IMG/VR virus record: IMGVR_UViG_3300021085_000038 | Span: 1 to 55,678 of that record | DNA length: 55,678 nt | Direction: 5' to 3' (one strand) | Origin: a virus | Taxonomy: Duplodnaviria; Caudoviricetes | Shown here: one piece after another, positions 1,330 to 3,769 of the stretch | Layout of the letters: every line of letters begins with the position of its first letter | Numbering within the stretch: position 1 is the first letter of the stretch | The notes under the pieces: model-generated | The model's database searches: none | What the model saw: the letters and a program-made list of their open reading frames with translations, nothing else | What the model was told of the DNA's origin: nothing | Position numbers and translations under genes: made by a program

Positions 1330-2651
1330 TTAAGCTGCGTTATATTTCGCAGTAACCAACGCTTCTGGGCGTAGGATTTTTCTACCGTAAAGGTGCATCC
1401 CTCTAACGATGTCTGCAAAGCTATCTGGATCACGGTATGTTTCCGTTTTGTTGATCTGTTCTGCTGTTGCCACCGCTGAGTCATGTCCAGCTACGATAAC
1501 ACCGAAATGGGCGTTGTTATTCGCTGCACCTGAATGCCCTGCACCGTTTCCGACTGCTGGTAGGTTTGATGATGTATATACACGGAAGCCGTGGAAGTTA
1601 TTTAACACCAATCCGTTACGAAGCGCACCTGAGTCACCGTAATCGGCGTTCAAGAAGCGTGAATCTTCGTCAGCTAGTAGTTCCATAAATACTGGATCTA
1701 CACATAACCAACGACCTGCTGAATCAACTTGATTTTGATCCAATAGACGCTTCATACGAGCTACAACCATTGCTGGTGAACATGTAGCTGTAGGTAGTGC
1801 TGTTGCACCTGGTAAACGTGCTGCTAATGGAATCGAATGATCTCCAGCAGAAGTTGTTGTAATGTTACCAAATGAACCTTTGTTTAACTTCATTGAAGCT
1901 AACAATTCGTCAGAACCTGCTGCTGTATCCGCTTTAGAACCATTTACTTGGTCGTTAACTGCGGCTGCATTAGCATGTAAAGCAGACTGCTTATAACCTG
2001 ATAAATAGCCAAGAACTTCTTGGTCATACTGATCAGCTAAACGGTGTGCTGCACGGTCTGTTGCAAGGGACATAAAATTCACATGACTAAACTGGTCCTC
2101 GATATCATCCATCTTGAAAGCAAAGTAGTTAGCTTTGTCGATTGTTAATGAAAAATCGGCATCAGTTAAATCTTGTGCAGCTATGGTCGTGCCACGCTTG
2201 TACTGCGACACAGAAATTTCTGGTTCTTTGATAATTCTGCAATATGTTCAAATAAGATCGTTAGTTCTTATTCCGCTTTTTAAAGCTGCTACATGTCGCC
2301 ATGTAGATCAGACCATATCATCATCCACTGGGGATGCTCTGCGCTTCGAGCCACTTGGCTCTACTTCCTGTCGGAATGGTCGTTGGACGTTCCTATTTCT
2401 AGGCTTCGCTGCTGATTGTCTCGTGGAGATGTCCCAGCAATTCACAGAGTTTTTCGAAGTAGATTGCTCTACTAAGCCGCCAAATTAACGGTATCACCTT
2501 GGGATGCAATTTCCCCAAAGTAATCAGAGTTAGTGATAGCACCCGTAACAGTATTCTTGCGGAATGCGAGTTGGACTTTCTTCGAATAAATTACACTCGA
2601 AAAATTTCCTGAGTTGAGGTTGGTGTACCCCGATGCTTTTGCAATTGCCAT
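1330..2651 (-). CDS. Major capsid protein, spliced: exon 1 2651-2488, exon 2 2239-1330 (357 aa)
   Basis: AGGAG RBS before ATG 2651. Joining the exons gives DYFGEIASQGDTVRIIKEPEISVSQY. C-terminus ...DSFADIVRGMHLYGRKILRPEAL. Lies between scaffold and adaptor genes. Confidence 0.9.
2240..2487 (-). ncRNA. Group I self-splicing intron (IA-like), 248 nt, no homing endonuclease ORF
   Basis: P (AAUUGCUGGGA), Q (AAUCAGCAG), R (GUCCAACGACCA) and S (GAUAUGGUCU) elements. P3 CUCUGUG/CGCAGAG, P7 GACCA/UGGUC, U.G at the 5' splice site, terminal G. Removal restores the reading frame. Confidence 0.92.
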
Positions 2652-2955
2652 TGTATGTACTCCTTGTGAAATGGCTAGGCCGAAGCCTGAACAAAACCGA
2701 AGAGGACAATTAAGTGGCAGTGATAAATAAGGGTGCGAATAACTATGAAGTTGCAACTAAATAGCAGACGGGCCTCAACACACTGGTAGACTAAACGTCG
2801 ATATTCTTCTGTATTATATTAAGACATAGAGGTAGACCGTAAGGTGGCTCTATTCTGTAGTTGAGAAATTTAGCTCTCAGAAGATATGTCTTTAGAAGAC
2901 GTATCATTAAAAAGCTGGGAAGGGGCGAGTCGTATAATCTTCGCCTCTTCACCTT

Positions 2956-2984
2956 TATTATAACATTAGTTAGGTGTCATTGCA
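2956..2984 (-). promoter_or_regulatory. Sigma70-type promoter of the capsid operon
   Basis: TTGCAA-N17-TATAAT; the spacer carries an operator-like TGACACCTAAC. Confidence 0.75.
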
Positions 2985-2989
2985 ACACC

Positions 2990-3769
2990 CTATCTAGCGC
3001 CACCACTTAGATCATAATCAAAGTTACCAGTTTGCATGGCTTCTTCAATTGCTTCTACATTCTTACCAAATTCAATATTACTCATTTGCTGTACTTGGCT
3101 TTCAGAGAACGTAGCTCTTCCTGCGGCTTTAGGTGTAGATGATGATGTTCGACCTACAGAGTGTGCTGCTGATTTAGATTTAGATTTTGTAGTAGATCTA
3201 CTCATATCGTATTTATATAAGTCAATAGCACGAGAAGCGGATCTAGCATCAGAATTGTTTTTATACAGAGCATTTTGAGTATCTATAGTTTGTTCTGCTA
3301 CCCAATCATGAAAACTTTGATCTTGTCGTATTTGATTAAAGTCAGGATGCATTTTAAGAAGTTCTTGTTCAGCTTCCTTTTTGGTAAGCTTAGTTTCTAA
3401 CTGACGTAATCCTTCCATACGCTTTTCGCCCTCTGCAAGTGCTTCATTAGCACGTTTTTGAGCGATGCTATCCACAATCTTTGCTACATCAGGATATTTC
3501 TTAGACCAGACATCAATCTCTTCATCTGTCTTAGGAAACTTAATCTGACCTTTGGCGGCCTGATCTAGTTGAGCTTTCATTTTTTGTAGCTCTTGATCCT
3601 TTTGTTGCATCAACTGCTGCGAGTGTCGTCGGAGATCACCATATCGTTTCTTATATGTTGTATCTTCGCCTTCGACTACTTCAGAATCTTTTGCAGGATT
3701 TTGAGCTTCAAGCTCTTCTGCATAAGATAGTCCATTGTCTTCATCTTCTATTCTTCGATATTTTGCCAT
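2990..3769 (-). CDS. Capsid scaffolding protein
   Basis: Acidic, helical 259-aa protein just upstream of the capsid gene; YKKRYGDLRRH and HPDF motifs. Confidence 0.75.
   Translation of the reverse strand: MAKYRRIEDEDNGLSYAEELEAQNPAKDSEVVEGEDTTYKKRYGDLRRHSQQLMQQKDQELQKMKAQLDQAAKGQIKFPKTDEEIDVWSKKYPDVAKIVDSIAQKRANEALAEGEKRMEGLRQLETKLTKKEAEQELLKMHPDFNQIRQDQSFHDWVAEQTIDTQNALYKNNSDARSASRAIDLYKYDMSRSTTKSKSKSAAHSVGRTSSSTPKAAGRATFSESQVQQMSNIEFGKNVEAIEEAMQTGNFDYDLSGGAR

Follow-up and report, generated by a model that had tools for sequence, protein, structure and literature searches.

The 55,678-base IMG/VR virus record IMGVR_UViG_3300021085_000038, rated 100% complete by CheckV and analysed here over its whole length (hereafter the window), carries on its minus strand a predicted major capsid gene that is interrupted within codon V55 by 248 nucleotides (nt) having the features of a group I intron without an open reading frame (ORF). 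An original prediction, made from the letters of the DNA, had placed such an intron at 2240-2487, and its boundaries held base for base. The intron opens with UAAUUUGG, and the interrupted gene is laid out as follows:

2651..2488, minus strand: capsid exon 1, with ATG at 2651, 54 codons and GT, the first two bases of codon V55
2487..2240, minus strand: group I intron, 248 nt, ORF-less, subgroup IA architecture, T 2487 being its first base and omega-G 2240 its last
2239..1330, minus strand: capsid exon 2, with the last base of codon V55, 301 codons and the stop

The interrupted gene is predicted to encode a phage major capsid protein of the HK97-fold families. Exon 2 matched the Pfam profiles Phage_capsid_4 (PF25209, 33.7 bits, cut-off 27) and Phage_capsid_2 (PF19821, 26.9 bits, cut-off 25) as well as the PHROG family phrog_267, major head protein (E = 1e-53), and the relatives of the gene are annotated as coat or major capsid proteins; the P22 coat profile PF11651 scored 20.4 bits on the gene, under its cut-off of 24. 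The identity of exon 2 to coat proteins, 76% for Roseobacter phages CRP-13 and CRP-1 and 67% for Puniceispirillum phage HMO-2011, assigns the window to the HMO-2011-type marine podoviruses, of which it is a complete 55.7-kb genome. Exon 1 was recovered by tblastn in all related loci, and ATG 2651 is preceded at a distance of a few bases by AAGGAG, which resembles a Shine-Dalgarno sequence.

Read without splicing, the frame from ATG 2651 passes through GDTV into NLAA and then TAG, a stop five codons inside the intron; unless the intron is removed, exon 2 does not share the frame of exon 1, so that unspliced RNA would yield only a stub of 59 amino acids (aa). Joining 2488 to 2239 brings GT to C, gives the reading GDTVRIIKEPE that had been predicted and produces a protein of 357 aa, whose peptide across the joint includes QGDTVRIIKEPE. 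This spliced protein aligned with the coat proteins of CRP-13, Caudoviricetes sp. ctYwJ313 and HMO-2011 with no gap at the junction, where CRP-13 reads GDTVKIIKEPE, in agreement with the expectation that intron-less homologues would be contiguous there. The cut is unique, since a shift of one base in either direction costs U as the last exon-1 base, G as the last intron base or the conserved valine. The further claim that capsid synthesis depends on splicing is borne out by the stop inside the intron and the frame of exon 2.

Comparison with relatives revealed that the intron is optional. Among the related viral contigs (the best 80 of at least 600 matches), 79 were continuous through the site, as were all four GenBank relatives; the remaining contig, L008, shows the same 251-nt gap. 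The nearest relative, L006, is intron-less and has an amino-acid identity of 100% over exon 1 and 98% over exon 2, and the intron is therefore dispensable. Cultured CRP-13 and the other CRP records compared are also continuous through the site. The two-piece capsid match of HTVC104P (L004) was considered as a second intron carrier and rejected, its annotated gene being continuous with an internal segment missing; the coat protein of HTVC104P is about 40 residues shorter than the others, over an internal stretch.

A search with Rfam returned the group I model RF00028 on 2497..2289 of the minus strand with 83.2 bits (gathering score 50, E = 9.9e-20), spanning the full model (1-253 of 253) and forming the sole Rfam match within the window, the covariance-model hit that the original prediction had called for. 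Group I introns are defined by a U at the end of the upstream exon, held in a U.G wobble with the guide sequence, and by a G as the last intron base. Here U 2488 would form the wobble with G 2480, and the U before the cut and the terminal G 2240 are present in all 11 distinct copies compared. The same two bases serve as group I marks in a study of mycobacteriophage introns (PMC3706429). From the Rfam alignment and inspection we assembled an explicit structure reaching from P1 to P9.2 (14 helices, 68 pairs), with these elements:

2477..2491, minus strand: P1 and internal guide sequence, exon CCGU 2491-2488 plus intron U 2487 with GGCGG 2481-2477
2484-2481 and 2239-2236, minus strand: P10, in which UUUG can pair with CAGA of exon 2
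2311..2449, minus strand: catalytic core, from the Rfam alignment and the explicit structure
2449-2443/2343-2337, minus strand: P3
2439-2434/2415-2410, minus strand: P4
2429-2426/2422-2419, minus strand: P5
2409-2408/2388-2387, minus strand: P6
2403-2400/2395-2392, minus strand: P6a
2381-2377/2315-2311, minus strand: P7, GACCA/UGGUC, forming the pseudoknot with P3
2376-2373/2368-2365, minus strand: P7.1
2361-2357/2352-2348, minus strand: P7.2
2336-2332/2326-2322, minus strand: P8
2252..2306, minus strand: peripheral 3' domain (P9, P9.1 and P9.2)
2306-2300/2295-2289, minus strand: P9, with a GNRA loop in all copies (GCGA or GUGA)
2286-2283/2278-2275, minus strand: P9.1
2271-2266/2257-2252, minus strand: P9.2

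All helices that had been listed beforehand (P1, P10, P3, P4, P7, two hairpins between P7 and P3', P8, P9, P9.1 and P9.2, with the terminal G) were found, and both the RF00028 match and covariation agree with them. In the gap-free alignment of the 11 distinct copies, standard pairs filled 99.7% of the 748 pair cells, and double-sided changes occurred at 11 pairs (two in P6a, one in P7, three in P7.1, one in P9, two in P9.1 and two in P9.2), as against 0-1 double-change pairs and 30-46% pairing in six slid controls. The covariation score was matched by 0 of 500 shuffles. The count of 'further pair types' fell below the shuffled mean (15 vs 18.0), as is to be expected of strictly compensatory changes. 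P7, for which a compensated pair had been proposed, alternates between GACCA/UGGUC in five copies and GACUA/UAGUC in six. Covariation information comes from the variable helices, as P1, P2, P3, P4, P5, P6, P7.2 and P8 are invariant, P1 in 11 of 11 copies. The exon 2 of one carrier, L101, opens with UAAA instead of CAGA and keeps the pairing with the UUUG guide, which may lend P10 weak support. Thermodynamic folding alone yielded P2 to P9.2, with a minimum free energy of -70.9 kcal/mol (z = -2.88) that none of 200 shuffles equalled.

In the Michel-Westhof classification, subgroup IA is recognised by two additional hairpins, P7.1 and P7.2, that stand between P7 and P3'. The Rfam alignment places a 31-nt insertion at this position, and P7.1 has three covarying pairs; the earlier description of the intron as IA-like thus stands, with the assignment made at the level of IA and not of IA1, IA2 or IA3. 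On the strength of its fold, we assign the 248 nt to subgroup IA and consider them a complete group I catalytic intron.

To follow splicing at the RNA level, we turned to environmental runs. Part of the locus was listed in 24 runs, 21 of them on record as RNA libraries, and the four best metatranscriptome runs, from four studies, were compared with positions 1330-2990. Contigs of all four runs contained the 2239->2488 joint, which skips 248 nt with no positional ambiguity (both = 0) and reads GATACCGT followed by CAGAATT, the very junction foreseen by the original prediction. The spliced-joint contigs had depths of 51.3, 19.8, 79.2 and 265.3. Record 14 of run X2 matched 130+57 nt across the joint with 0 differing letters, and record 20 of run X4 extended over 120+327 nt. 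Contigs that retain the intron came from two runs alone: X1, at a depth of 4.12, and X4, at 15.5 for a variant that differs in five letters. Exact excision of the intron and ligation of the exons thus occur in environmental RNA, and the per-contig depths are indicative of the spliced form predominating in all four runs. The intron region stands at a small fraction of exon depth, the opposite of what carry-over of DNA would be expected to give. Three outcomes that the original prediction had named as fatal to it (no covariance-model hit, no spliced junction, homologues not contiguous at the joint) were all contradicted by these results.

An intron-less DNA allele was considered as the source of the joints. 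The junction 15-mer was present in 0 of 83 intron-less loci and the junction 24-mer in 0 contigs of the viral collection; the 24-mer was found in two metagenome contigs (L119:2836-2859 and L120:1283-1306), which belong to a distant intron-less capsid lineage. Their exons are only 64-68% identical in nucleotides to those of the window and show 57 mismatches over the 187 nt in which the RNA contig matches at every letter; the perfectly matching RNA contigs cannot stem from them, and this explanation was rejected. L119 and L120 are natural empty target sites holding the exact 24-nt unoccupied sequence, and may be regarded as candidate recipient sites or as products of precise intron loss. A second joint in run X5 (2235->2487, with ACG between) was considered as alternative splicing and rejected, being the L006-type intron-less allele. 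X5 accordingly holds both the spliced intron-bearing allele and the L006-type allele, as transcripts or as DNA, so that phages with and without the intron are present together in a single sample, as homing would require.

A scan of viral contigs for the boundary between exon 1 and intron revealed 17 further carriers (one of them, L086, being the L008 contig), all with an RF00028 match of 77-93 bits. In 16 of the 17 the intron is exactly 248 nt long and sits at the same base, in capsid alleles 74-100% identical to that of the window; the 17th is the chimeric L094 described below. The 3' exon flank, which the search left unconstrained, is CAGAATTAT in 15 of the 16 carriers with the whole codon-55 (site-B) intron and TAAAATTAT in L101, and the L094 chimera has a different 3' flank. 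Identical introns lie beside exon 1 sequences only 66.5% identical (L090/L095) or 81.7% identical (L089/L093) and beside exon 2 sequences only 73% identical (L098/L100), and intron identity exceeded exon-2 identity in 109 of 120 pairs, with means of 92% and 81%. Between -164 and +47 of the junction, the window and the intron-less L006 differ at five positions, four of which are -3, 0, +1 and +3; the differences are all synonymous, and the carrier versions create the partners of P1 and P10. Together with the identical introns, these junction differences are the pattern that horizontal movement would leave, whether through co-conversion or through constraint by the guide sequence. Since an identical intron can be found in capsid alleles whose exons share only 66-82% identity, the intron appears to spread horizontally among capsid alleles.

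Related introns interrupt the same gene elsewhere. Rfam found two introns each in the capsid genes of L094 and L101, and boundary scans with mapping identified four further sites:

site after V20, 268 nt: L101, L103, L105 and L118
site after S50, 283-290 nt: L103, L106, L111, L112 and L115
site inside F95, 264 nt: L107, L109 and L114
site after S106, 270 nt: 16 contigs by boundary scan

The sister-intron regions examined were L101:7545-7812, L103:738-1396, L106:3950-4670, L107:2270-2834 and L109:2653-3180. In each of the six loci tested there were two RF00028 matches, all 12 scoring 64.5-89 bits, and a mini-exon of 31 nt (KMDDIEEAHS) separates the F95 and S106 introns. All sister copies seen are ORF-less, and the number of introns per capsid gene varies, with 0 as the lowest count and at least 2 as the highest. 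Between sites, the introns share 63-85% identity, and the site-B copies form a cluster of their own at 82-100%. With codon V55 there are five sites in total, all within the first 107 codons, and this hotspot of related ORF-less introns is the most interesting aspect of the locus, going beyond the original finding. The first intron of L094 (L094:4838-5390, minus strand) is chimeric, its 5' quarter being 100% of site-B type and its 3' half 97-100% of site-D type, and the 40 codons between sites B and D are missing; either two similar introns were collapsed in assembly, or the contig holds a genuine intron recombinant whose capsid gene carries the deletion.

The means by which such introns might move was sought inside the intron and across the genome. 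No ORF longer than 45 aa exists within the intron, in keeping with its prediction as ORF-less; the 45-aa one overlaps the ribozyme core and has no PHROG match, and none of the 16 whole copies, all exactly 248 nt, departs from this length to hold the endonuclease ORF of a classical homing intron. Profiles for HNH (PF01844), HNH_3 (PF13392), GIY-YIG (PF01541), Endonuclease_7 (PF02945) and LAGLIDADG_3 (PF14528) gave 0 matches each in the 55.7-kb genome, which thus offers no free-standing nuclease of these five families for collaborative homing. In ctYwJ313 (L002:350-919, MW202701.1), a gene for a 189-aa HNH endonuclease lies between the upstream gene and the intron-less capsid gene. Its protein had no tblastn match in the window or in L001-L102 apart from its own locus; as a candidate for a free-standing homing endonuclease, it might have the capsid gene as its target.

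The capsid gene is flanked by a tail protein gene (584-1273) and by a gene at 2990-3769 to which PHROG assigned no function and which, by position only, is possibly a scaffold gene. Upstream of the capsid ATG lies a non-coding spacer of 338 nt (2652-2989, minus strand) that is 98% identical to that of L006. The spacer was considered as a decayed homing-endonuclease gene and rejected, as it has no match to the ctYwJ313 HNH gene and a comparable non-coding spacer of 228-342 nt precedes the capsid gene in 89 of 93 loci; it is the norm of the family. Outliers in length include L065 (424 nt) and HTVC104P (81 nt). The spacer contains a promoter-like TTGCAA-17-TATAAT, with a TG upstream of it, at 2985..2957, and is covered by RNA contigs as far as 2884, the point at which sequencing adapter takes over in one contig of X1. 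This contig end may mark an RNA 5' end, and a long structured leader upstream of the capsid gene is possible.

Taken together, we hold it very probable that the 248 nt are a self-splicing, ORF-less subgroup IA group I intron in capsid codon V55, best read as a selfish mobile element and not as a regulator, because near-identical phages may have or lack it, identical copies of it are found in divergent alleles and it belongs to a family of sister introns at five sites. On this reading the capsid gene would be transcribed through the intron, and the ribozyme would fold from P1 to P9.2 with the P3/P7 pseudoknot. Free guanosine would attack after U 2488 by the standard group I pathway, in a presumably protein-independent reaction; the freed end of exon 1 would then attack after G 2240, with P10 aligning exon 2, and the ligated mRNA would encode the 357-aa capsid protein. 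As the intron contains no endonuclease gene and the genome none of the five families, the intron would spread by recombination in co-infected cells, possibly aided by a nuclease supplied in trans.

Several points weigh against this reading. We infer protein-free self-splicing and its dependence on guanosine from sequence, as we do the mode of spread. Identical introns beside divergent exons could also arise if capsid genes recombined as mosaics around an intron that is inherited vertically, and the genome could encode other or novel homing-endonuclease families beyond the five searched. The RNA runs were compared as Logan contigs, not as raw reads, with depths per contig, and splicing efficiencies are indicative only; DNA can be present in RNA libraries, and the DNA control for the spliced junction consisted of assembled collections only.

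Among the alternatives, the one that fares best is collaborative homing with nuclease immunity, in which the intron survives by interrupting the site that a free-standing homing endonuclease recognises in a conserved stretch of the capsid gene, and that nuclease, encoded by the phage itself or by one infecting the same cell, in turn drives the intron into alleles that lack it. We consider it rather unlikely, although it is documented for an ORF-less phage intron, that of psbA in S-PM2 with its nuclease F-CphI (PMC6083498). The HNH gene inserted directly upstream of the ctYwJ313 capsid gene fits it, as does the clustering of five intron sites in the first 107 codons, which nuclease attack would be expected to produce. 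However, none of the five endonuclease families is found in the window, the ctYwJ313 HNH gene has no counterpart in the other loci (L001-L102), and 89 of 93 loci have a mere non-coding spacer where that gene lies. The near-fixed CAGAATTAT flank of the carriers and the clustering of synonymous differences from L006 at the junction would also suit a nuclease site, but the pairing needs of P1 and P10 explain the fixed flanks equally well.

A regulatory gate, whereby splicing would time or throttle capsid synthesis, for example through the guanosine triphosphate (GTP)/Mg2+ state of the host or through translation, seems improbable to us. Capsid production strictly needs splicing, given the stop five codons into the intron and the out-of-frame exon 2, and some unspliced RNA is present in X1 and X4; yet L006 and 79 of the 80 related contigs do without the intron, identical copies travel among divergent alleles, the spliced form is dominant in all four RNA runs, and sister introns vary in number and site, as is to be expected of a parasite and not of a control device under conservation. 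The reading as an assembly error, or as a relic in decay that breaks the capsid gene of a defective genome, for which the aberrant L094 with its missing codons could be cited as a case of assembly collapse, can be practically dismissed, as the same insertion occurs at the same base in 17 further viral contigs (16 at exactly 248 nt), its fold is preserved by compensatory changes, the genome record is complete and exact exon ligation is seen in RNA.

A selfish mobile intron is thus the reading we retain, and a broader proposal may be attached to it more tentatively, with the odds still against it: codons 1-107 of the capsid gene of HMO-2011-type phages would be an arena colonised at at least five sites by one horizontally moving, endonuclease-less intron family. 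This would imply either a trans-acting nuclease that targets the capsid gene in co-infected cells, with the introns as immunity, or ectopic reverse splicing, and the B/D chimera of L094 would then be a real intron recombinant. If so, its loss of 40 codons would be a cost of carrying several similar introns.

General knowledge of group I introns is unchanged by the finding. Its value lies in an unusually well-supported working ribozyme from an uncultured marine virus, for which fold, covariation and ligation in environmental RNA agree, and in the sight of small endonuclease-free introns circulating horizontally in natural populations of an abundant marine phage group, where they concentrate in the most highly expressed late gene; the locus offers a natural system for asking how ORF-less introns move. 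There is also a practical consequence. Gene callers report this capsid gene as two pieces, a stub of 59 aa and an ORF truncated at its N-terminus, and surveys of HMO-2011-type phages that use the capsid gene as a marker will mis-annotate or miss intron carriers, including relatives with two introns or the 31-nt mini-exon.

The nearest sequence relatives of the ribozyme, among the matches listed (40 of 480, from 50,697 phage records), are subgroup IA introns in DNA and RNA polymerase genes. These include the DNA polymerase intron of Mosigvirus vB_EcoM_G2285 (74.6% over 213 nt) and, at 68-77% in the conserved core, introns in N4-like Acinetobacter phage nACB1's DNA polymerase gene and in phiKZ-like RNA polymerase beta subunit genes. 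They differ from the intron of the window in lying in replication and transcription genes, and that of nACB1 has an HNH ORF inside. No isolate phage record with the intron of the window in a capsid gene was among those listed matches. A polymerase intron has been speculated for OM43 phages (PMC10580990). Our literature search found no report of capsid introns in HMO-2011-type phages; the supplementary tables of the HMO-2011 and CRP papers, which lay outside the search, might list split capsid genes.

Several introns in one phage gene are known from other systems. Twort orf142 reportedly contains three. Polymerase genes of Bastillevirinae have two to three (PMC11878797), and Jug phages have about 18 introns per genome, validated by metatranscriptomes (PMC12363816). 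The capsid family described here resembles the multi-intron cases in having several small group I introns per gene, with metatranscriptome support in uncultured phages. It differs from them in that their introns lie in polymerase, terminase, ribonucleotide reductase or unnamed genes, whereas here the capsid gene of marine podoviruses of about 55 kb is interrupted and all copies are ORF-less.

Cyanophage S-PM2 provides the closest parallel for mobility. Its ORF-less psbA intron is mobilised and protected by the adjacent free-standing F-CphI, a process described as 'collaborative homing' (PMC6083498). Both are small ORF-less group I introns of marine phages in a highly expressed, conserved gene, and in both mobility must come from outside the intron. 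The nuclease of S-PM2 is encoded beside the interrupted gene, in contrast to the window, where none of the five families was found and the neighbours of the capsid gene are structural or function-unassigned.

The closest parallels for location come from mycobacteriophages. The capsid gene of LittleE contains a spliced group I-type intron of 819 bp with an endonuclease ORF, documented by reverse transcription PCR and N-terminal sequencing, and the tail gene of BAKA and Optimus a 265-bp ORF-less intron (Pope et al. 2013, PMC3706429). As in the window, a highly expressed gene for a virion structural component is interrupted by a group I-type intron, the upstream exon ends in U and the intron in G, splicing is seen at the RNA level and close relatives may lack the intron; the BAKA intron also shares the lack of an ORF and the similar size. 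The LittleE intron differs in its length and its LAGLIDADG-like endonuclease ORF, and these phages are temperate siphoviruses of high-GC Actinobacteria. One intron site per gene is reported there, compared with five in the capsid family of the window, and those introns are called 'most likely group I'; for the intron of the window, covariance model and covariation settle the type. The same paper cites an intron that the lactococcal phage Tuc2009 has in its gene for the capsid subunit, which, going by that citing sentence, is likewise of group I and lies in a major head protein gene of a phage. With LittleE published and Tuc2009 cited, the rarity of the capsid-gene location implied by the original prediction was overstated: group I introns in phage capsid genes are already known, and the intron of the window adds to them.

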